Positions 34,416 to 59,257 of a DNA stretch of 64,000 nt are shown piece by piece. The DNA is taken from positions 155,484-219,483 of the forward strand of contig DATDQB010000020.1 of assembly GCA_035292445.1 (NCBI GenBank), read 5' to 3'. Position numbers and translations under genes: made by a program. Origin of the DNA: Candidatus Omnitrophota bacterium (GTDB lineage Bacteria > Omnitrophota > Gorgyraeia > Zapsychrales > Zapsychraceae). Positions within the stretch are counted from its first letter, which is position 1. Every line of letters begins with the position of its first letter. The notes under the pieces are model-generated. The model searched no databases and had not been told where the DNA came from. It was given only the letters and a program-made list of their open reading frames with translations.

Positions 34416-34511
34416 ATCATGCTTGGTGGCATTTTGGTTTCCCTAAATTTATGGTAACCAAAATACCACTTAAACTCGGGTTCGCCCTATGGGCTCACCC
34501 TCGTATTTAAG

Positions 34512-34901
34512 TGGAGGTGCCGGGAATCGAACCCGGGTCCTCAAGTAACTTTCTAAAAGCCTCTACATGCTTAGACTGTTTTTAAGTTTCGTCCTGATTT
34601 TCTAAACAGACAAACGGACCAGGACCAGCCTTTAGGATCTCGCCCACATGAATAAGGCGTTCATATGAGCCAGCCTGCCAATGACCTTATTGCCCGCTCA
34701 CAGGCTAAGCAAGCATAAGGGCGCTGCGCTATTAGGCAGCGACTGTTTCGCCAGCGAAAATCGGGTTAACGATTTCGTTAGCTTGGGCTAAGATTGAATC
34801 TTCGCCGTTTAATTGGTGCTTGGGCTGATTAACGAGGCCAACCAAGCGTCCTCGGCATGCCACTGATAGTCCATCGACTCAAGTCGAGACCGATCACCCC
34901 C
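34512..34901 (-). ncRNA. ssrA: tmRNA (SsrA), one-piece, about 390 nt. The 3' CCA is not encoded.
   Basis: 5' GGGGGUGAUCGGUCUCGAC... and 3' ...GGACCCGGGUUCGAUUCCCGGCACCUCCA form the tRNA-like domain. Internal GCAUGCCGAGG and UUGGCCUCG elements are present. The tag ORF ...GCU AAC GAA AUC GUU AAC CCG AUU UUC GCU GGC GAA ACA GUC GCU GCC UAA UAG gives (A)NEIVNPIFAGETVAA followed by two stops. Confidence 0.9.
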
Positions 34902-36216: not shown

Positions 36217-36231
36217 GTGAGAAATCTACTT

Positions 36232-36313
36232 GCGGAAGTGGTGGAATTGGTAGACACGCAGGTCTCAGAAGCCTGTGCTTCACGGCATGAGAGTTCAAGT
36301 CTCTCCTTCCGCA
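36232..36313 (+). tRNA. tRNA-Leu (anticodon CAG), type II with a long variable arm.
   Basis: Acceptor GCGGAAG/CUUCCGC plus discriminator A. Anticodon stem CAGGU/GCCUG with loop CUCAGAA. T arm GAGAG-UUCAAGU-CUCUC. Confidence 0.9.
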
Positions 36314-36428
36314 TTTATCATTTCAGATAAAGGAAATTTTCTTGCAACTTCCCGCAAAGCATACTAGAATGTTGGGACAATTTTAAGAATATTAAAATAA
36401 TATTAATAATTATTAATAATACCTGCCT

Positions 36429-52506: not shown

Positions 52507-53433
52507 TTAGAAATGCCGATACCCTTTAAGATTTAATGAAACAAAGCTTTTATTGGCTTTCATCAGCAAAAGCCTGCCCTTGGCCTTGGTGATCTCACCG
52601 ATACGGTAAATGCGAAAATGTTTTTGTGCCATCAAGCGGAAAGCTTCTTTCGCCGGAACCGTTACGATCAGCTCAAAATCCTCGCCGTCGTACAGGGCAT
52701 TATGTAGGGGCACAGCGCGCTGTGCCCCTACCAATCGTCTGGGAATCAATTTTTCATAAATCGTGGCGCCGACCTTGCTTTGCGTTAGGATATGTCCTAG
52801 ATCGGCCGCCAGCCCATCGGAGACATCGATCATGGATGTCGGATGGAATCTCTTCACCAAATATTGGGACTCATCGATCCTTGGAGTGAACTTAAGATGC
52901 TGGCCGCTCTTCAAAGATCCGCCCAACGCTCCCGTAACAAATATATGGTCACCGACCTTGGCACCGCTTCTTAAAACAAGCTGCTTCTTTTTAACCTCGC
53001 CGGTCAAAGCAATGTTGATGATGATTTTTTGGCTTTTGACCGTGTCGCCACCGACAACGCTAACACCGAACTTGCGCGCCAGATCATGAATGCCCCGGTA
53101 AATGTCGCGGACCTTCTCCCACGAAGTCTGGCCGGATATTCCTAAAGACACAAGCGCGTAGCGGGCAACACCTCCCATGGCCGCGATGTCGCTTAAATTA
53201 CACGCGAGCGCCTTGCGGCCGATCAAATACGCAGGATCGTCTTTCCTGAAATGCACACCCTCCATGATCATGTCCGTTGTCAGAAGCGAATATCGTTTCT
53301 TATCCAACGCCACGACCGCCGTGTCATCGCCGATGCCGGCAATAACCGACGTAGGGAACGCTCGCGAGCGTTCCCTACATTGCCTCTTGATACGCTCGAT
53401 CAAACCAAATTCACCTAACGCGGAAATCTTCAT
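52507..53433 (-). CDS. thiL: Thiamine-monophosphate kinase.
   Basis: GEFGLIERI ... GIGDDTAV ... AIR-synthase-like fold motifs. It carries the 31-bp palindrome in frame near the N-terminus. Confidence 0.85.
   Translation of the reverse strand: MKISALGEFGLIERIKRQCRERSRAFPTSVIAGIGDDTAVVALDKKRYSLLTTDMIMEGVHFRKDDPAYLIGRKALACNLSDIAAMGGVARYALVSLGISGQTSWEKVRDIYRGIHDLARKFGVSVVGGDTVKSQKIIINIALTGEVKKKQLVLRSGAKVGDHIFVTGALGGSLKSGQHLKFTPRIDESQYLVKRFHPTSMIDVSDGLAADLGHILTQSKVGATIYEKLIPRRLVGAQRAVPLHNALYDGEDFELIVTVPAKEAFRLMAQKHFRIYRIGEITKAKGRLLLMKANKSFVSLNLKGYRHF
53351..53381. repeat. 31-bp element whose core is a 28-bp perfect palindrome (gtagggaacgctcgcgagcgttccctac), copy 1, inside thiL.
   Basis: Exact self-complementary sequence. 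Identical to copy 2 at 54224-54254. Confidence 0.9.
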
Positions 53434-54443
53434 AAATGGCGGATTATCCCTTTTTCCGTCACAAACCCCGTGATCAATTCGTGCGGTGTCACATCGAAGG
53501 CCGGATTATAAACTTTGACGTTCTTGGGCGCTGTCGGAATGCCTCCCCACTGGATGACTTCTTTCCTATCCCTTTGTTCGATCGGGATGGCGCGGCCATT
53601 CTTCGTCTTAAGGTCGAACGTCGTTGACGGCGCGACCACGTAAAAAGGAACCCGGTGATGCTTGGCCAATACAGCCAGCATGTAAGTGCCGATCTTGTTG
53701 GCGGTATCGCCATTGGCCGCGATGCGGTCCGCGCCGGTTAAAATAAGATCGACTTTACCCTGCTTCATGAGTGTCGCCGCCATGTTATCACAAATGAGCG
53801 TGACATCGATTCTTCTGCGCATCAGCTCCCAGGTCGTCAGCCGCGCTCCTTGCAGGAGCGGGCGCGTTTCGCACGCGTAGACCGAAAATCTCTTCCCCGC
53901 TTCCTTGGCCGCGTACATGACGCCTGCCGCTGTGCCGTAATCGACCGTTGCCAACACGCCCGTGTTACAGATCGTCAGAACCCGAGAGCCCGATCTGATC
54001 AAAGAACTGCCCGCTTTTCCCATGGCCCGGCAAAGGCGGCGGTCCTCTTCGTACATACGAAACGCTTCTTTCTTTAACGCGGCCTTGATCTGGGAAACGC
54101 TCCGGCGCTTATTGCCCTGGGCCGCCTTTTCCATCCGTTCAAGGGCGTAAAATAAATTCACGGCAGTCGGCCGCGAGGTGCGTAAATACGCGGCGGTTTT
54201 CTTGATATGCTGTTGTAGGGAACGCTCGCGAGCGTTCCCTACATTAAATCCCTTCAATCCCAAAAGAACACCGAAAGCCCCGGCCACGCCCAATGCCGGC
54301 GCACCGCGGACCTTCAATTGCTTGATCGCTTTCCAAAGGGAAGTTACGTCAGAGTAAGTGCAGTAGACAAGCTTCTGCGGAAGCTTGGTTTGGTCGATGA
54401 GCTTGACCTTGCCGTTGACCCATTTGATAGTTTGGATGGACAT
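53430..54443 (-). CDS. mtnA: S-methyl-5-thioribose-1-phosphate isomerase (eIF-2B alpha/beta/delta family).
   Basis: VRGAPALGVAGAFG ... TSRPTAVNL ... CNTG ... CETRP ... GADRIAANGDTANKIGTY. Confidence 0.85.
   Translation of the reverse strand: MSIQTIKWVNGKVKLIDQTKLPQKLVYCTYSDVTSLWKAIKQLKVRGAPALGVAGAFGVLLGLKGFNVGNARERSLQQHIKKTAAYLRTSRPTAVNLFYALERMEKAAQGNKRRSVSQIKAALKKEAFRMYEEDRRLCRAMGKAGSSLIRSGSRVLTICNTGVLATVDYGTAAGVMYAAKEAGKRFSVYACETRPLLQGARLTTWELMRRRIDVTLICDNMAATLMKQGKVDLILTGADRIAANGDTANKIGTYMLAVLAKHHRVPFYVVAPSTTFDLKTKNGRAIPIEQRDRKEVIQWGGIPTAPKNVKVYNPAFDVTPHELITGFVTEKGIIRHL
54224..54254. repeat. Copy 2 of the same 31-bp palindromic element, inside mtnA.
   Basis: Identical 31-mer gtagggaacgctcgcgagcgttccctacatt. 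Confidence 0.9.
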
Positions 54444-54490
54444 ATTACCGAAAACTACAGTCTAGAGTCTAGTGTCTGAAGTCTCCAACC

Positions 54491-54664
54491 CTAATTTCCC
54501 GACCCCGGAGGGTTCTTCTTGATACTTTCTTCCACGTGCTCGGAGCCGCTGCTGATCCAGCCGCCCACGGTCTTGACATCATCCCCGATACCTTTTATGG
54601 TATTGCAACCATAAAGCGAGCCCATCAAGGCCAGGGTTAGAACACCTAAGATAACTTTTCTCAT
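54491..54664 (-). CDS. Entericidin (EcnA/EcnB) family small lipoprotein.
   Basis: MRKVILGVLTLALMGSLYGCNTIKGIGDDVKTVGG matches the entericidin pattern (lipobox, then NTxxGxGxDxxxxG). Confidence 0.7.
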   Translation of the reverse strand: MRKVILGVLTLALMGSLYGCNTIKGIGDDVKTVGGWISSGSEHVEESIKKNPPGSGN

Positions 54665-54744
54665 GTTAACTCCTTCCGTGAAGTTTTTCCTGCTCCCAAA
54701 GCGCGAGTCCGCCAACGGCAGACGAGCATTTGGGGTTACCTTAA

Positions 54745-55050
54745 TTATATAGGGCGCGGCGGCCGAGCGGAGCGGGCTGCGCGATCCTTGTCACCGGGCC
54801 GGAAGGGTTTCTTCTTTTCCACATACCTTCTGCCCTCATCTTGTCGCTTGTGGCTAAAAGCGCTTCCCCGCGGATTTTCATAGCGTTGATGCGCTCCATA
54901 GCTGCGGGATGATGGGGGATAACTCTTTGGCCCCGCTTGCCTGCCCGCTGACTGAGCCACCAGCGTGTCGATCTTGCGCTCAAGATAGGTGATCTGTTTT
55001 TGCAGTTCCTTAATTAAAGTAATGACTGTTTCATTGGCTTGCTGTTCCAT
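54745..55050 (-). CDS. Hypothetical small protein (N-terminal coiled coil, Arg-rich C-terminus).
   Basis: 101-aa ORF with its own upstream spacer. Confidence 0.4.
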   Translation of the reverse strand: MEQQANETVITLIKELQKQITYLERKIDTLVAQSAGRQAGPKSYPPSSRSYGAHQRYENPRGSAFSHKRQDEGRRYVEKKKPFRPGDKDRAARSARPPRPI

Positions 55051-55080
55051 AGATACTCCTTAATTTATGTGTCCCTTTTT

Positions 55081-55235
55081 AAAGTGCCTGGCATCTATTT
55101 TTTATTTTCAGGTTATTGGGTCATCAGGCGATCAGGTTGCAGGAAATCGGGGTATTGGGATATTTGGTAAAACCCGATATCCTGATAACCTAATTCCCTC
55201 CATCCTGATATCCTGATTCCCTGATGACCTTTACC
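55081..55235. repeat. Intergenic long imperfect hairpin built from ATCAGG/CCTGAT tandem motifs.
   Basis: ggttattgggtcatcaggcgatcaggttgcagg ... cctgataacctaattccctccatcctgatatcctgattccctgatgacc. Confidence 0.55.
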
Positions 55236-55507
55236 TTCTTCTTCTCCGCCAATTTTTTGGCCTTGGCGACCGCTTTAGCTTCTTTTTTGCGCTGCGCCTT
55301 TAAATTCTTATTCAACTGTTCCGTTCTCTTGATCGCGTCCTTCGCCCTCTTGGCATCGTCTTCTTTTCTCAGCTGCAGCTTATCAACATTGCGAAAAATA
55401 TTCCCGCCGTTGCCCGCGCTTGGGGCCTGGTCGGACAAAGCCAATGCGCTGGTGATGGGTATTAAGAAAATGCCTGCCGCGACCGATATAGCCTTAATGT
55501 TCGTCAT
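55190..55507 (-). CDS. Hypothetical secreted Lys/Ala-rich protein.
   Basis: Signal peptide MTNIKAISVAAGIFLIPITSALA. Highly charged helical remainder. Confidence 0.5.
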   Translation of the reverse strand: MTNIKAISVAAGIFLIPITSALALSDQAPSAGNGGNIFRNVDKLQLRKEDDAKRAKDAIKRTEQLNKNLKAQRKKEAKAVAKAKKLAEKKKVKVIRESGYQDGGN

Positions 55508-55679
55508 CCTGCTCCGCCATTTTCTTTAGGACAATCTCGATCGTTGCCGCGTCAACATCCGCTTCCCTCATGAGCGCCTCGGCGCGCTTTAGGTCATCGC
55601 CATCGACGGCGTCCATGAATTCCTCAAGCTTATCGATCCGCGCCATTTGCTCTAACACCAATGACCCTTCGAAATCCAT
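55494..55679 (-). CDS. Hypothetical small acidic protein (61 aa).
   Basis: Short ORF overlapping the downstream gene start by 14 bp. Confidence 0.3.
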   Translation of the reverse strand: MDFEGSLVLEQMARIDKLEEFMDAVDGDDLKRAEALMREADVDAATIEIVLKKMAEQDDEH

Positions 55680-55691
55680 GGAATTCCACCT

Positions 55692-56021
55692 CTATTTTCG
55701 CGGCAACTGGGAAACAAAACCAATGGCTTGATCGATCCACTCCTTCAAGGCAGCCTCGCCCTTCAACCCTTGCGGCTTCGCCATGACCCAACCCTTCATG
55801 GCCCGGCCAGTAATGTCAAAAGGCACGGTGTTCTTTTTCTTTAAAGCGATCCCGGCATTTGCCTCACCCAAGCGCAGGATCAGATTATCTTTCCAGATCC
55901 CAAAGCACATATTGCCGCGCAGCAAAAATCCCACCCCGCCGAACATTTTTTGTTGCTGGAAATCCCTTCGCTCCTCCACTATCTTCGCCAAACGTTTTTC
56001 GAGTTTCTGATCGTAGGCCAT
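55692..56021 (-). CDS. TfoX/Sxy N-terminal-domain family protein.
   Basis: Conserved MFGGVGFLLRGNMCFGIW ... LRL pattern of the TfoX_N domain. Confidence 0.65.
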   Translation of the reverse strand: MAYDQKLEKRLAKIVEERRDFQQQKMFGGVGFLLRGNMCFGIWKDNLILRLGEANAGIALKKKNTVPFDITGRAMKGWVMAKPQGLKGEAALKEWIDQAIGFVSQLPRK

Positions 56022-56033
56022 AATTAATTGAAC

Positions 56034-56066
56034 CTGTCCCCTCAGAGTGTCCTGTCCCCTTCTCCT
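56034..56066. repeat. Inverted-repeat copy (reverse orientation) of the GGGGACAGGACACTC element.
   Basis: cctgtcccctcagagtgtcctgtccccttctcc is the reverse complement of ggagaaggggacaggacactcccaagggaca at 56407-56440. Confidence 0.75.
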
Positions 56067-56383
56067 TTTTCTAAGTTACCTATACATTGATATTTAACTG
56101 TTACCAGATTGTCCGAACAAAAAGAGTTCTCACCAGATTGACATACAGAAGTTGCTTGTCCAAAGGGTTCAGCACTATCATATCCCCAAGCCTGACATCT
56201 CTGCTTCGCAGTTTGCAATGCTGACGCCCAATCTACTTCAACCGTGTCCAGCCAACTATATTGATAGGACATCTCTATAATGCCGTCTGCCCGACTTCCA
56301 CCCGTTGGTTGTAAAACTTTTACCACCGTACACCCAATGAAAACGGGCAATAGGGCTGTCATTATTAAAATCTTTGTTTTCAT
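56042..56383 (-). CDS. Small hypothetical lipoprotein (113 aa). Its coding ends run into the flanking inverted repeats.
   Basis: Lipobox LLPVFIGC after MKTKILIMTA. Cys-rich mature part. The C-terminal GEGDRTL is encoded by the inverted repeat. Confidence 0.5.
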   Translation of the reverse strand: MKTKILIMTALLPVFIGCTVVKVLQPTGGSRADGIIEMSYQYSWLDTVEVDWASALQTAKQRCQAWGYDSAEPFGQATSVCQSGENSFCSDNLVTVKYQCIGNLEKGEGDRTL

Positions 56384-56406
56384 ATTCTTTGGAAAATCAT
56401 GGAGAA

Positions 56407-56447
56407 GGAGAAGGGGACAGGACACTCCCAAGGGACACCCTTCTATT
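56407..56447. repeat. GGGGACAGGACACTCCC element, forward copy 1.
   Basis: ggagaaggggacaggacactcccaagggacacccttctattt. Repeated directly at 56578-56617. Confidence 0.75.
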
Positions 56448-56577
56448 TCTTCTCTACTTCGATCCTCGGAAACAACGCTTCGTGCGTTTGCATCCGAATT
56501 CCTCATCTAAAATAAAAATATTGTACGGGCCGCAGATCTGCGGCCCCTACTTTGTCTCGATTCTTGTATTGAAGGGG

Positions 56578-56617
56578 ACAGGACACTCCCCAGGGACACC
56601 CTTCTATTTTTTCTCCA
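56578..56617. repeat. GGGGACAGGACACTCCC element, forward copy 2.
   Basis: gaaggggacaggacactccccagggacacccttctatttt. Confidence 0.75.
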
Positions 56618-56757
56618 CTTCTCCCCAAATGCTCCCCGCCTTTACACTACAATTGTTGCCGCGCGGCAACAATTTGAATATGTGCCCGCCGGCACAAATT
56701 GTCGGCCCAGCACACAATTTTAAACAGTACGGACCGCAACAGTGTGCGGCCCCTACG

Positions 56758-57144
56758 TTATAACGCCTTAAACAACCCCTCCACAAACTGAAGATACTCG
56801 CTGGCCTCTTTTTTGGCGATCAGCATATCGGCATTATACATATCCCGATTACGGCTTTTGCGCATCCTTTCGCCGACAACCAACACATCCTGCGAACCCA
56901 AGATCTCGCTTAACGCCTCGATGATCTTCTTATGATGCCCCGGACGACTTTTGACGCGGTAACCTTCCTTCGCCAGATAATAGATCCCTATCATAATAAG
57001 CGCCATATAGGAAAAGTGAAAGACCACCTCCGGCTCCCCATGGCGGCCGGCAATATCCAGATTCCGCTTCGCCGATTTGCGATACTTTCCCAGTTGGGCC
57101 TGCGTAAATTTCTGGCTTATAAAAAAATCCTTATCAAATGTCAT
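56758..57144 (-). CDS. HEPN-domain protein, the putative toxin of a HEPN/MNT pair.
   Basis: Rx4H motif (RPGHHKK). 128 aa. Overlaps the upstream MNT gene by 4 bp. Confidence 0.65.
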   Translation of the reverse strand: MTFDKDFFISQKFTQAQLGKYRKSAKRNLDIAGRHGEPEVVFHFSYMALIMIGIYYLAKEGYRVKSRPGHHKKIIEALSEILGSQDVLVVGERMRKSRNRDMYNADMLIAKKEASEYLQFVEGLFKAL

Positions 57145-57686
57145 AATAGACGGACCGTTTTTCCGTCAAAAATGTTTTTGATGAACTCATCCTTTTGTTT
57201 TTTATTCTTGGCCAACTCCTGCGGGGTGATATCGATGACATTGATCTCGCGGCCGGTCTCTTTTTGAAGGCCATAAATGGCCTTTTGCGCCTCTATGCTG
57301 CTGTGGGTCCCGACCAGCAAAATATCGATATCGCTCATCGCTTCATAACGGCCATTGGCGTAGGAACCGAAAATATAAGCTTCCTTGAGGTTCTTGACCG
57401 TTTTAAGCCTCTCGCTCAAACCGTGCTCAAAACCCGCCGTCTTAAGGAAAATTTCTTTATAGTGCTTGTAGAGAGGGTTCCCCTTATTAACGGAAAAAAA
57501 CCTCTCTTTGCCCCTGAACTCGCTTTTAAGAAGGCCTTCCTGCTGAAGCTGCACCAGGATGCGAAAGACGTTCTTGGGGTCGGCTTCAATAAGCCGGGCA
57601 AGCTCGTTAATATAAGCCTGTTTTTCTTCGTTCAAGAAGAAGTAATTGAGGACCCTCGTTTTGGTTTGGGAACGCGCTCGGATCAT
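57141..57686 (-). CDS. Minimal nucleotidyltransferase (MNT, Pol-beta-like) with an N-terminal winged-helix domain, the putative antitoxin.
   Basis: GSYANGRYEAMSDIDILLVG (GSx9-13DxD). N-terminal HTH-like region NELARLIEADPKNVFRILVQLQQEGLL. Confidence 0.7.
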   Translation of the reverse strand: MIRARSQTKTRVLNYFFLNEEKQAYINELARLIEADPKNVFRILVQLQQEGLLKSEFRGKERFFSVNKGNPLYKHYKEIFLKTAGFEHGLSERLKTVKNLKEAYIFGSYANGRYEAMSDIDILLVGTHSSIEAQKAIYGLQKETGREINVIDITPQELAKNKKQKDEFIKNIFDGKTVRLL

Positions 57687-57742
57687 AATGGTCTTTCTTA
57701 ACCATGATTATGGTATAAATATACCATAACAGAAAAAACCTG

Positions 57743-59257
57743 TCAAGCGGCTGCCTTAGGAGTGGTTTCAATCCTCGGAAACAACGCCTCATGCGTTTGT
57801 AGCTGCGTGCCGCTTTTGAGTTCGCCCCACTTGCTCCCTGATTTAACAGCACCCAAAACTTCAAGTACCTTCTGTGTCTTCGAAGGCATAACGGGGGCTA
57901 GAAAGACCGCGCTTATGCGTAGCGCCTCGCTCGCGGTGTAAAGGATAACGCCGGCTTTTTTAAGGTCCTCTTTGGCGACCTTCCAGGGAGCAGATTCCTC
58001 CAGGTATTTATTCGCCATGCGGACAATGTTCAAGGGCGCTTCAATGGCTTCCCTTATATTCATCCGCTCGATGGATTCCGGAACGGTCTTGGCTAACGCT
58101 TCCGCCGCTTGTTTAATATCTTGTACGGAACGGTCGAGACCGTTCCCTACGGGGATTTTCCCATCAAACAATTTATTAATCAACCCGCTCACGCGGTTCA
58201 ACAAATTCCCAAAGTCATTAGCGAGATCGCTATTGAAACGTTTGATAAAGGATTCGATCGTAAAGTTCGCATCAGAACCGAGCACCATTTCACTCATCAG
58301 ATAATAGCGGACCGGGTCCACCCCATATTGCTCGATCAGATCCAATGGATTGACCACATTCCCTAAGGATTTGCTCATTTTGGACTCGCCAATAAGCCAC
58401 CAGCCGTGGGCGAAAATTGTTTTGGGCAGCGGAATGCCGAGTGAGAAAAGCATGGTCGGCCAATACACGGCGTGGGTGGTCAAAATATCCTTGCCGATCA
58501 GATGAACGTCCGCCGACCACCATTTCTTAAAATTTTTCTCATTGCTTCCATAACCTGGGACGGAAATGTAATTGATAAGCGCGTCAAACCACACATAGGT
58601 GACGTAATCTTTATCAAAAGGAATTTCAATGCCCCAGCTCATGCGGGACTTGGGCCGCGAGATGCACAGGTCCGTCAGCGGCTGCTTTAAAAACCCAAGA
58701 ACTTCATTCTTACGATGTTCGGGCTGGATAAATTCGGGATGCGTATTGATGTATTCGATGAGCTGTTTCTGGTACTTGCCCATCTTGAAAAAATAGTTCT
58801 TCTCTTTTAATTCCTTAACGTCCCGGAAGGCGCCGGATTCTTTCTCGGTTGAGGTGATGAAACGCTCCTCCGAAACCGAATACCAGCCCGTGTACTCATC
58901 GATGTAAATATCGCCCTTGTCGTAGACTTCCTGCAACACTTTTTGCACGATTGTCGTGTGGCGCTTCTCGGTCGTGCGGATAAAATCATCGTTCTCGATC
59001 TCAAGGCGCTTCCACAATTCGCTGAACCTCGGCGCCATCTCATCGGCGTGCTGCTGAGGGCTTACCCCTCTTTTTTCCGCGGCCTGGGCCACTTTTTGCC
59101 CGTGCTCATCGAGGCCTGTTAAGAAAAAAACCTCATCACCCGCGACCTTATGGTAACGGGCGAGCACATCGGCGAGGATCGTTGTGTACGCATGCCCAAT
59201 GTGCGGCTTGTCGTTCACGTAGTAAATCGGAGTTGTGACAAAAAATTTGGAGCTCAT
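57743..59257 (-). CDS. metG: Methionyl-tRNA synthetase (core form without the C-terminal tRNA-binding domain).
   Basis: HIGHAYT and KMSKS motifs (PHIGHAYTTILAD, SKMSKSLGN). Confidence 0.9.
   Translation of the reverse strand: MSSKFFVTTPIYYVNDKPHIGHAYTTILADVLARYHKVAGDEVFFLTGLDEHGQKVAQAAEKRGVSPQQHADEMAPRFSELWKRLEIENDDFIRTTEKRHTTIVQKVLQEVYDKGDIYIDEYTGWYSVSEERFITSTEKESGAFRDVKELKEKNYFFKMGKYQKQLIEYINTHPEFIQPEHRKNEVLGFLKQPLTDLCISRPKSRMSWGIEIPFDKDYVTYVWFDALINYISVPGYGSNEKNFKKWWSADVHLIGKDILTTHAVYWPTMLFSLGIPLPKTIFAHGWWLIGESKMSKSLGNVVNPLDLIEQYGVDPVRYYLMSEMVLGSDANFTIESFIKRFNSDLANDFGNLLNRVSGLINKLFDGKIPVGNGLDRSVQDIKQAAEALAKTVPESIERMNIREAIEAPLNIVRMANKYLEESAPWKVAKEDLKKAGVILYTASEALRISAVFLAPVMPSKTQKVLEVLGAVKSGSKWGELKSGTQLQTHEALFPRIETTPKAAA

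Follow-up and report, generated by a model that had tools for sequence, protein, structure and literature searches.

The gap downstream of metG in the 64-kb window (the whole stretch of DNA that was analysed) is, as judged from its sequence, an insertion hotspot built up in layers, in which REP-like repeats have been seeded. Three observations at the sequence level underlie this assignment: the repeats are the same as those flanking a RAYT-like transposase gene, the 3' end of metG is duplicated and the inserted DNA is not syntenic in relatives. The order and the mechanism of the events, and the transposase as the spreader of the repeats, are what we infer beyond this. The initial annotation had held that the locus is not ordinary intergenic DNA and had suggested a recombination hotspot; both statements were borne out, as in the relatives metG is followed by the IF-2B-family gene or by another island, and the metG 3' end is duplicated. 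The features of the locus are as follows.

54444-57742, minus strand: accessory DNA separating metG from the IF-2B-family gene, about 3.3 kb
56033-56067, minus strand: repeat copy 1, left-end (LE) type, minus-strand reading GAAGGGGACAGGACACTCTGAGGGGACAGG
56042-56383, minus strand: yecR-family lipoprotein gene, 113 aa (Pfam PF13992, YecR, E=6.4e-25)
56405-56440, plus strand: repeat copy 2, right-end (RE) type, GAAGGGGACAGGACACTCCCAAGGGACACC
56443-56490, minus strand: non-functional metG 3'-end remnant, translated as QTHEALFPRIEVEKK and a stop
56523-56550, minus strand: GC-rich hairpin with BglII palindrome (-13.4 kcal/mol, z=-6.0), followed by AATATTTTTATTTT on the minus strand
56571-56600, plus strand: RE-type repeat copy 3, lying within the 51-nt direct repeat 56571-56621
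56604-56621, minus strand: second metG-tail remnant, fused to repeat copy 3, translated as EVEKK and a stop
56651-56719, no strand assigned: three abutting palindromes with AATTGT/ACAATT-type ends (56651-56674, perfect, 24 bp; 56678-56701; 56697-56719)
56727-56756, minus strand: GC-rich, terminator-like hairpin right after the stop of the HEPN-like gene (-10.4 kcal/mol, z=-3.6)
56758-57686, minus strand: two-gene module, with wHTH + MNT nucleotidyltransferase (57141-57686) and HEPN-like 128-aa protein (56758-57144)
57709-57746, minus strand: promoter-like site TTGACA-17-TATATT, 11/12 matches, with TG extension
57743-57799, minus strand: live metG 3' end, of which the 33-nt block 57767-57799 (QTHEALFPRIE) is common with the remnant

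The accessory DNA comprises the MNT/HEPN-like module, yecR, a TfoX_N gene and four small ORFs. It is missing in three of the four relatives compared, where metG and the IF-2B-family gene are separated by 2, 88 and 294 nt (L027, L029 and L043, respectively). In the fourth, L025, metG is followed by another island, which contains AbiEii, Dcm, Vsr and EcoRII genes and in which no duplicated metG end was found within 6 kb. Synteny of the region, which the initial annotation had associated with simply conserved regulatory hairpins, was not found in these four. All of them show at most 78% MetRS identity, so the order of the insertion events cannot be reconstructed from this comparison.

The metG 3' end is present 2.3 times at the locus. 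The longer remnant retains the family-typical MetRS C-terminus; many Omnitrophota MetRS proteins end in ...LFPRIEVEKK, and the genuine metG end in L043 is identical to the remnant at 41 of 48 nt and encodes the same 15 residues. The live gene ends in TTPKAAA (7 codons and stop, 57743-57766), and this tail comes from the inserted MNT/HEPN-like module. A motif at 56458-56490 recurs at 57767-57799 (33 nt, 91%). This recurrence had been noticed before and stands, but its interpretation as a repeat with a loop-compatible change does not, since the motif is metG coding sequence and its 3 differences are synonymous third-position changes. All five differences in the coding remnants are synonymous, with a chance of 0.007 and 0.019 under random substitutions and of 0.04 and 0.10 when only transitions are allowed. 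The 51-nt and 33-nt repeats meet at the TTC 56458-56460, and their junctions coincide within 3 nt. The third repeat copy, formerly taken as an extra solo copy, and the recurring motif turned out to be duplicated pieces of the metG 3' end and not extra transposon ends. An in-situ tandem duplication of the metG end was also considered. That every one of the five differences is synonymous speaks against it, as does the 80-nt terminator segment, which is not repeated after copy 2.

The locus resembles the islets known at the 3' ends of housekeeping and tRNA genes with att-like duplication. As in those, the end block of 33 nt is directly repeated on both sides of the insert, a TA/defence module is the cargo, relatives have different islands at the same site and a replacement gene end comes with the insert, which leaves metG intact. 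Unlike them, it has no integrase, the insert is only 1.3 kb long, an extra internal copy of the old metG tail is present and the old and the replacement tail share no homology.

In the inserted module, a minimal nucleotidyltransferase gene adjoins a gene for a protein of predicted HEPN fold. The MNT protein matched Pfam NTP_transf_2 at 1.2e-10, with an NCBIfam MntA-like match below the cut-off, and the gene pair matched the PADLOC models PDC-M05A (1.9e-38) and PDC-M05B (1.8e-13). For the 128-aa protein no Pfam HEPN match was obtained and a PDB sequence search gave nothing useful. Its AlphaFold model (pLDDT 88) had HEPN proteins as best PDB fold matches at TM 0.5-0.63 with weak E-values, and a HEPN-like fold is predicted. 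The earlier designation as a HEPN gene is thus not supported by Pfam, but it agrees with the predicted fold and the PADLOC pair. The module is similar to MNT-HEPN (MntA/HepT, type VII) toxin-antitoxin systems (PADLOC PDC-M05) in the 4-nt overlap of the nucleotidyltransferase gene with a small gene for an all-helical HEPN-fold protein, in the match to the PADLOC pair and in having its own promoter and a palindromic candidate operator. It differs from them by the N-terminal winged-helix domain of the MNT protein, by the missing Pfam HEPN match and by a canonical Rx4-6H motif that is not evident at the expected place; in a look-up by eye only, RVKSRPGH was seen at residues 63-70 and SRNRDMY near residue 100. 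The -35 hexamer of the promoter-like site overlaps the metG stop codon, and a 20-bp palindrome within the site (57709-57728) is likely the operator of the MNT/HEPN-like operon.

Every repeat and palindrome described in the initial annotation was confirmed as real and non-random. The lipoprotein gene is indeed bracketed by inverted repeats (56035-56067 and 56405-56437; 33 nt, 91% complementary, spacing 337 nt), and a third copy does lie in direct orientation, 56571-56621 matching 56410-56460 over 51 nt at 94% identity. The 18-mer GAAGGGGACAGGACACTC has 3 exact copies in the window and 0 across 100 dinucleotide-preserving shuffles. Each unit in the window has two direct GGGACA half-sites; the LE type (copy 1) ends in ..GGACAGG and the RE type (copies 2 and 3) in ..GGACACC. 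Copy 1, with the terminus ..GGACAGGTT, resembles the LE arm of the RAYT-like gene (L030, 9950-9983), and copy 2 is identical to a copy at L013 (30/30). Copy 1 covers the yecR stop and the 7 codons before it; the initial annotation had already ascribed the last codons of the gene to the repeats. The first codon of yecR (ATG, 56381-56383), which it had ascribed to them as well, is not part of the other arm, which begins at 56405. Copy 2 precedes the yecR start by 22 nt and follows the stop of the metG remnant by 2 nt. Folded as single-stranded DNA, the window units gave z = -1.5, +0.2 and +0.8 and are not convincing hairpins, and therefore a defining REP feature is missing. Only some copies pair with partial inverted neighbours, as at L013 (z=-5.9).

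Apart from the contig with the locus itself, 3 further contigs of the same sample contained the 18-mer in a metagenome scan. One of these has an inverted pair of the repeat around a 202-aa ORF, which matched Pfam Y1_Tnp (1.4e-10) and scored 72.7 bits (E=2.8e-20) with the NCBIfam model of REP-associated tyrosine transposases, just missing the cut-off of 80; an adjoining 167-aa paralogue scored 82.5, above that cut-off. The arms at L030 (9950-9983 and 10606-10639; 34 nt, 82% complementary) are inverted around the transposase gene, and the same inverted-flank layout was seen at L034 and L039, the orthologue arms at L039 holding a GTCCAC..GTGGAC stem. Transposase orthologues in other Omnitrophota genomes (61-66% identity) possess 28-29-nt inverted flanks of the design GAAGGGG-N-CAG-...-GGACA, in which the inner bases vary and the distinction of left ..ACAGG and right ..ACACC is retained. 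These distinct left and right subtypes are conserved across three genomes. The transposase is situated downstream of RHS/YD toxin genes in two genomes (61% identity), and one orthologue (P0127) has the same context on 19 contigs, which fits a single-copy, vertically inherited gene. The gene encodes a RAYT-like and probably domesticated Y1/HUH single-strand-DNA transposase. The flank of the second paralogue (GACCGGGTACCAAT) was searched in the window and is absent there. The NCBI accession of the ORF is HLF17562 and that of the metG product HLF18767, both labelled as TPA Omnitrophota MAG proteins; exact look-ups succeeded with the 202-aa version (P0241) and gave no record for the 113-aa YecR and P0121. 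The contigs of the transposase and of the window share the same samples. Going by the HLF accession block and these shared samples, and not by a single contig, the transposase gene very probably belongs to the same MAG as the window; GC content is 38% in the transposase contig versus 49% in the window.

At least nine repeat copies at at least four loci were recovered from the same sample. This copy number, like the extragenic bias, was sampled from metagenome contigs and is not a whole-MAG count. The element is thus not unique to the locus, as the initial annotation had considered it might be: an inverted pair is found at the transposase gene and solo copies at other loci. At L012 it flanks a ParE toxin-antitoxin pair, and a repeated unit of about 100 nt separates two toxin-antitoxin cassettes; at L014 it flanks a lipoprotein gene. 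The flanking copies at both loci are direct and not inverted. GTDB representative genomes, a set without the source genome, gave 7 single chance matches to the 18-mer in unrelated phyla, and viral contigs matched neither the repeat nor the 24-bp palindrome. Since the same sequence forms the inverted flanks of the RAYT-like Y1 transposase gene, a putative derivation of the repeat family from a mobile-element-type system is supported.

To our knowledge, work on REP/RAYT systems has been almost confined to Proteobacteria, where a REP is a hairpin. The literature on REP/REPIN sequences and RAYTs reportedly includes Nunvar 2010, Bertels & Rainey 2011 and Ton-Hoang 2012. The present system agrees with REP/RAYT systems in several respects: a short repeat forms an inverted pair around a Y1/HUH transposase gene that is apparently single-copy, further copies of this repeat are found at other, mostly extragenic sites in the sampled contigs and just past stop codons, and from one genome to the next the repeat sequence varies in step with the transposase. 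In abundance the repeat is low to moderate, similar to RAYT groups 1 and 4, for which about 12-14 occurrences per replicon are given (Bertels et al. 2017, PMC5581495). It differs in that the units measure about 30 nt, contain two direct GGGACA(G/C) half-sites, fold weakly and have no GTAG-headed palindrome; none of the window units convincingly forms the 20-40-nt imperfect-palindrome hairpin with GTAG/GGAG-type head that marks a REP. Further differences are the distinct left and right flank subtypes, the flanked gene scoring just under the NCBIfam RAYT cut-off and the host, a member of Omnitrophota. With IS200/IS605 elements and PATEs the system shares the Y1_Tnp fold, a left end that differs from the right end and a compact unit of about 700 bp. 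Unlike in IS200/IS605, the transposase is apparently single-copy and syntenic rather than multi-copy, and its ends form a 28-34-nt inverted repeat, which is absent from IS200/IS605. The repeat system is unusual and not a fundamentally new kind of bacterial repeat.

We consider it moderately probable that REP-like repeats from the ends of the RAYT-like transposase were seeded in a repeatedly invaded post-metG gap. The three GAAGGGGACAGGACAC... units would be REP-like copies of both end sequences of the transposase gene located elsewhere in the genome, and the gap downstream of metG would have accepted foreign DNA repeatedly in this lineage. The ancestral metG presumably ended in ...QTHEALFPRIEVEKK and a stop, followed by a terminator and the IF-2B-family gene. 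An RE-type repeat may have landed just past the metG stop. The MNT/HEPN-like two-gene module, with its own promoter and terminator, would then have entered exactly at the ...PRIE/VEKK junction, giving metG its new 7-codon tail and stranding the old tail and the repeat downstream. A second event, by a Campbell-type crossover or homology-facilitated illegitimate recombination with DNA of a related strain, may have placed two such metG ends in tandem, with the 33-nt metG block as homology. According to this scheme yecR would merely lie between one RE-type and one LE-type repeat, the LE-type copy having replaced the natural yecR stop.

The yecR segment allows other interpretations. The NCBI gene call gives an identical 113-aa protein (P0243), whose C-terminal tail is longer than in 13 homologues; these stop 0-7 residues past YQCIG, and here the tail has 11 residues, the last 7 of them repeat-encoded. 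The initial annotation regarded the gene and its arms as a miniature mobile cassette, which in molecular terms would be a PATE- or MITE-like transposon with the arms as terminal inverted repeats and yecR as cargo mobilised in trans by the Y1 transposase. The complementarity of the 33-nt arms, their correspondence to one LE-type and one RE-type copy of real transposase flanks and the small accessory genes flanked by the same repeat at L012 and L014 would suit such an element. It is nevertheless very unlikely. Read along the yecR sense strand, an RE-type arm, yecR and an LE-type arm follow one another, which is inside-out relative to the autonomous locus (left end, transposase, right end), so the unit is not a PATE, and the flanks at L012 and L014 are direct rather than inverted. 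In the databases searched the protein is encoded at one locus only, with the nearest homologue 57% identical, and a homologue locus examined (L040) has no such arms. The segment is identical and in the same orientation in four independent assemblies, among which no empty-site or alternative-site variant was found. The orientation, constant in five contigs from four samples, also makes it scarcely credible that a site-specific recombinase flips the 337-bp segment as a switch for a phase-varying surface lipoprotein. A surface-lipoprotein gene between inverted repeats does recall such switches, but no recombinase gene is nearby, the segment holds a whole gene and not a promoter, and the arms are members of a dispersed family.

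Looking at the locus as a whole, an integron-like cassette array (CALIN) would explain the repeats and palindromes as attC-like sites between promoterless cassettes, namely the TA module, the lipoprotein gene and small ORFs. All inserted genes are co-oriented, the cargo (a TA pair and small secreted proteins) is typical, L012 has its two TA cassettes split by the repeated unit, and the recombination junctions coincide within 3 nt. Against this, the precomputed Pfam list showed no integrase or tyrosine-recombinase domain among the called genes in 8.5-10 kb on each side, the repeat has neither attC R''/R' cores (RYYYAAC...GTTRRRY; none around the repeats) nor the bulged-hairpin design, and one copy lies in inverted orientation. 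Elsewhere this sequence is found on both sides of a Y1 transposase gene and not of an integron, and the MNT/HEPN-like module has a predicted strong promoter of its own; a CALIN is thus highly improbable. An idea that we hold to be quite unlikely as well is an integrase-free analogue of the integron, in which the Omnitrophota RAYT-like Y1 transposase with asymmetric, non-palindromic LE/RE sites would help to assemble small accessory cassettes at the 3' ends of housekeeping genes. Its footprints would be the coincident junctions at metG ...PRIE/VEKK, the repeat-bounded TA cassettes of L012 and population variants at the outer edge of copy 3. A cis-regulatory RNA, compatible with the REP-like origin of the repeats that we prefer, is judged unlikely: the arms would pair in a read-through transcript, the 33-bp stem enclosing the yecR mRNA would control its stability or translation, and the other palindromes would be terminators. 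In its favour, the gene string is co-oriented with both arms on its transcribed strand, the interval from the HEPN-like gene to yecR yielded no sigma-70-like promoter, two terminator-like hairpins are present, and REPs are reported to act in transcription termination and mRNA stabilisation (PMC3733652). The arrangement is, however, not conserved around yecR homologues, and the two upstream terminator-like hairpins make read-through into copy 2 uncertain. There is also no match to an Rfam family: searches of the whole window at gathering thresholds and of 55900-57900 at E<=1 gave only tmRNA, tRNA-Leu and two sub-threshold chance matches.

The locus suggests that a RAYT-like gene is conserved in Omnitrophota, an uncultivated phylum. 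Flanks and dispersed copies made of direct half-sites, with distinct left and right versions, would widen the recognition range of Y1 transposases. It is also a clear example of how the last codons of an essential gene can take up a spliced-in TA/defence module while the gene stays active, with datable scars left behind. Neither the RAYT-like flank design nor the splice-in at metG overturns current understanding.

The palindromes of the spacer were located as described earlier, the perfect 24-bp one at 56651-56674 and two more hairpins at 56681-56696 and 56731-56752. The array at 56651-56719 is not accounted for by the preferred explanation, and no further copies of it were found in the window, the fetched loci or viral contigs. 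The 20-bp BglII palindrome was found at 56527-56546 and extends to 56523-56550. This hairpin sits after the block of EVEKK, stop and repeat copy 3, and appears terminator-like on the minus strand, a reading based on its T-rich tail because the terminator scan flagged the plus strand only. GTAG-headed hairpins (GTAGGGGCCGCA...) were considered as a second REP family and rejected; the only two copies are at this locus, each just past a stop codon, and are rather read as terminators.

The genes around the repeats all lie on the minus strand and are listed with metG first.

Gene order around the repeats in the window
57743-59257, minus: metG
57141-57686, minus: wHTH-MNT nucleotidyltransferase gene
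56758-57144, minus: 128-aa (HEPN-like) gene
375 bp: spacer from the 128-aa gene to yecR
56042-56383, minus: 113-aa YecR-family lipoprotein gene (yecR)
between yecR and the IF-2B-family gene, minus: TfoX_N gene, then four small ORFs
53430-54443, minus: IF-2B-family gene

The window belongs to a Candidatus Omnitrophota MAG. An NCBI TPA protein is 100% identical to its MetRS; identity to the next relatives is 78% at most. The gap between metG and the IF-2B-family gene is 2 nt in the relatives L027/L028, 88 nt in L029 and 294 nt in L043. In all of these an AIRS-TsaE-TsaB-Alr string comes after IF-2B, and the same string is found in the window. The relatives L025/L026 carry another island after metG, composed of AbiEii, an HTH gene, MazG-like, LexA-like, Dcm, Vsr and EcoRII. 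As IF-2B directly follows metG in three relatives and a different island occupies the site in L025/L026, the 3.3 kb at 54444-57742 is, judged from gene order, lineage-specific and the post-metG site is a hotspot. The initial annotation's proposal of a recombination hotspot beside a toxin-antitoxin module is borne out. Within 8.5-10 kb to the left and right, the domains recorded for called genes include no recombinase. Other small insertions occur nearby in the relatives, namely a RelB/ParE pair that separates IF-2B from the AIRS gene (L029 8681-9135) and, in the gap from metG to IF-2B, a tRNA-like sequence on the opposite strand (L043 4390-4470). Directly past the metG stop, other Omnitrophota have different short repeats of their own: AATGGGGA(T/A)TGACCCTTTT, present twice (L025 7646-7687), and GTCACC-rich palindromes (L029 7510-7590).

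The inverted repeat was confirmed at 56035-56067 and 56405-56437 (33 nt, 91% complementary). The third, direct copy lies within a 51-nt direct repeat (56410-56460 and 56571-56621, 94% identical); the motif that recurs forms another, of 33 nt (56458-56490 and 57767-57799, 91% identical). The perfect palindromes of 20 bp and 24 bp also lie where described, and so do two more hairpins. The repeat was said to supply both ends of yecR; it does supply the last seven codons and the stop, but not the start, since the arm extends from 56405 and the ATG, at 56383, lies outside it. The 18-mer common to the three copies has three occurrences in the window, against none in 100 shuffles. Single repeat units folded no better than shuffles. 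A second repeat family, runs of (C/T)(C/T)AGAC-type heptamers (CAGACACTAGACTCTAGAC), is present in the window (54465-54490), shortly before IF-2B begins and at the distal edge of the 3.3-kb insert, and in the repeat-bearing contig L012 (53-64, 837-848, 903-914 and 1701-1712). In L012 it comes after the REP-like unit and ahead of a terminator hairpin, and the whole, about 100 nt long, separates ParDE-like from VapBC-like cassettes. Octamers of the ATCAGG(A/G) type follow one another at 55119-55230, at the 3' end of a 105-aa ORF, and have an inverted partner of 18 nt.

In GTDB representative genomes the 18-mer gave chance hits only. In JGI metagenomes, the sample that yielded the window's contig has three further contigs with it. 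In L015 (same locus as L030-L033) an inverted pair of the GGGGACAGGACAC element directly flanks a 202-aa ORF matching Y1_Tnp, which upholds the earlier view of a repeat derived from a mobile element. This ORF scored 72.7 bits on the NCBIfam RAYT (REP-associated tyrosine transposase) model against a cut-off of 80, an adjoining 167-aa paralogue scored 82.5 bits, and some homologues are annotated by JGI as RayT. The accessions of the transposase (HLF17562) and metG (HLF18767) are about 1,200 numbers apart, both labelled TPA Omnitrophota MAG, and the contigs of the two come from the same three samples. From these points we infer that transposase and window locus belong to the same genome, despite the difference in GC (38% for the transposase contig, 49% for the window). 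In other Omnitrophota, orthologues with 61-66% identity lie between inverted flanks of 28-29 nt that share this design, in which GAAGGGG, CAG, CAC and GGACA are invariant and the inner bases vary between genomes; the left arm of transposase flanks always ends in ..ACAGG and the right arm in ..ACACC. RAYTs have been described as single-copy, vertically inherited, domesticated transposases (PMC5581495). The 202-aa ORF would fit this description, as it and the 61% orthologue both lie downstream of RHS/YD toxin genes and the orthologue has one single context on 19 contigs.

Elsewhere, one further copy lies upstream of a lipoprotein gene (L013), and two direct copies surround a ParE module (L012) and a lipoprotein gene (L014, another metagenome). 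Two small genes in L014 are enclosed by direct repeats, each about 130 nt long and spaced by 1.35 kb (1-180 and 1355-1500), which gives them a cassette-like look. An ORF in L013 (465-701), a contig of the same sample with a different gene context, is about 70% similar by eye to a 61-aa ORF of the inserted block (window 55494-55679), as paralogue or orthologue. A second REP-like type, GAAGGGGACAGTCCACCGGCAGTGGACA, was seen beside the transposase left arm (L030 9885-9912, equal to L015 1782-1810); within it GTCCAC..GTGGAC forms a true hairpin, and it is similar to the arms at the L039 orthologue. The first transposase unit lies between direct repeats of about 60 bp that share a GACCGGGTACC core (L015 970-1030 and 1822-1878), and a 14-nt inverted pair of this core flanks the 167-aa paralogue (L030 10679-10692 and 11260-11273), whose own repeat it may be. 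In two Omnitrophota genomes, large genes for RHS/YD-repeat toxins and small ORFs with a putative immunity role come just before the RAYT-like genes (L030 2761-8566; L034 1-2572).

Among known systems REP/RAYT is the closest, with three of its five features present in full or in part. Its palindrome with a GTAG head is absent from the window units, which are therefore called REP-like, a variant of REP/RAYT and not a member. IS200/IS605 PATE, integron/CALIN and an invertible switch each failed on a defining membership test. The locus presents a repeat-system variant in an under-studied phylum, with clear insertion scars at the 3' end of an essential gene.

The arms around yecR had hinted at a miniature mobile cassette carrying the lipoprotein gene. 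Copy 1 is of the left-end type, even to the following GGTT, and copies 2 and 3 are of the right-end type. Read along the sense strand of yecR, a right-end type comes first, then the gene, then a left-end type, whereas the autonomous unit reads left end, transposase, right end; by this order the arm pair does not bound a transposon in the way that the ends of the autonomous unit do. The gene is single-copy, its closest homologue is 57% identical, the flanking inverted repeat is absent from the homologue locus L040, and four independent assemblies showed one orientation and identical sequence in this part, all of which speak against the cassette. YecR homologues end 0-7 residues after YQCIG. The window protein has a tail of 11 residues, the last 7 repeat-encoded, so the repeat appears to have arrived at the natural 3' end of yecR and overwritten it.

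Parts of the metG end are present again in the spacer. The sequence at 57767-57799 codes QTHEALFPRIE near the live metG end, and 56490 to 56443 on the minus strand translates to QTHEALFPRIEVEKK*. The C-terminus ...LFPRIEVEKK is common among the 120 closest MetRS, and the real metG end of L043 has the same 15 residues, with 41 of 48 bases identical to the remnant. EVEKK* is present again on the third repeat copy (56621 to 56604), and the 51-nt and 33-nt repeats abut at one TTC (56458-56460).

Minus-strand layout from metG
metG-A1, 33 nt
X: new tail TTPKAAA*, promoter, MNT, HEPN-like gene, hairpin, palindrome array
B3: EVEKK* and repeat
Y: hairpin with T-run
A2, 33 nt
B2: VEKK* and repeat
yecR, then inverted repeat copy 1

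The motif noted as recurring with a loop-compatible change does recur, but it is metG coding sequence in which the differences are synonymous (3 of 3 between the blocks A1 and A2, as are 2 of 2 in the EVEKK codons). The chance of all being synonymous is 0.007 and 0.019 for random substitutions, and 0.04 and 0.10 for transitions only. This pattern suggests that the copies diverged as ends of functional metG genes, i.e. in different lineages; in-situ decay of the copies is less likely.

The hairpins at 56727-56756 (z = -3.6) and 56523-56550 (z = -6.0) fold strongly. On the minus strand the former follows the HEPN-like stop and the latter the EVEKK* remnant and repeat, each with a T-rich tract downstream. 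On the minus strand, a promoter/terminator scan picked out 56752-56731. As it picked out the BglII hairpin on the plus strand only and its total of terminator-like sites was not above shuffles, it is by the strength of their folds and by where they lie that both hairpins are read as putative intrinsic terminators. The promoter of the MNT operon is near-consensus, with a -35 hexamer overlapping the metG stop and a 20-bp palindrome over the -10 region, which indicates that the MNT/HEPN-like genes are a self-contained module. The module matches the PADLOC candidate system PDC-M05A/B. The 128-aa protein has a confident model (pLDDT 88), a helical bundle; HEPN proteins are the top hits to it in the PDB, with weak E-values. 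Three abutting AATTGT...ACAATT palindromes at 56651-56719, of which a second copy was not found in any sequence searched, might at a guess be a protein-binding array.

Read together, the sequences would fit an ancestor with metG...EVEKK*, a terminator and IF-2B. A right-end-type repeat would have settled just past the metG stop, and the MNT/HEPN-like module would have entered at the GAA/G junction. Recombination via the 33-nt metG block would then have joined a second metG end bearing its own repeat and yecR, either by single crossover with a circular copy or by one-sided homology and an illegitimate join with related-strain DNA. Other orders of the insertion events are possible.

The outer edge of repeat copy 3 showed population variants in other assemblies of the locus (L001 11150-11185, L003 6240-6365; window 56566-56575 and 56736). 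In L001 the variant is a 10-bp tandem duplication, CCCTTCAATA. In the L003 contig ...CCCCTTCAA is joined straight to CGGTCCGTAC within the upstream hairpin, as would be expected from a tandem duplication of 168 bp, from a circle junction or from an artefact of the contig end. The window also contains a tmRNA gene (tag GEDSILAQANEIVNPIFAGETVAA; 34509-34901) and a tRNA-Leu(CAG) (36231-36314), both ordinary.
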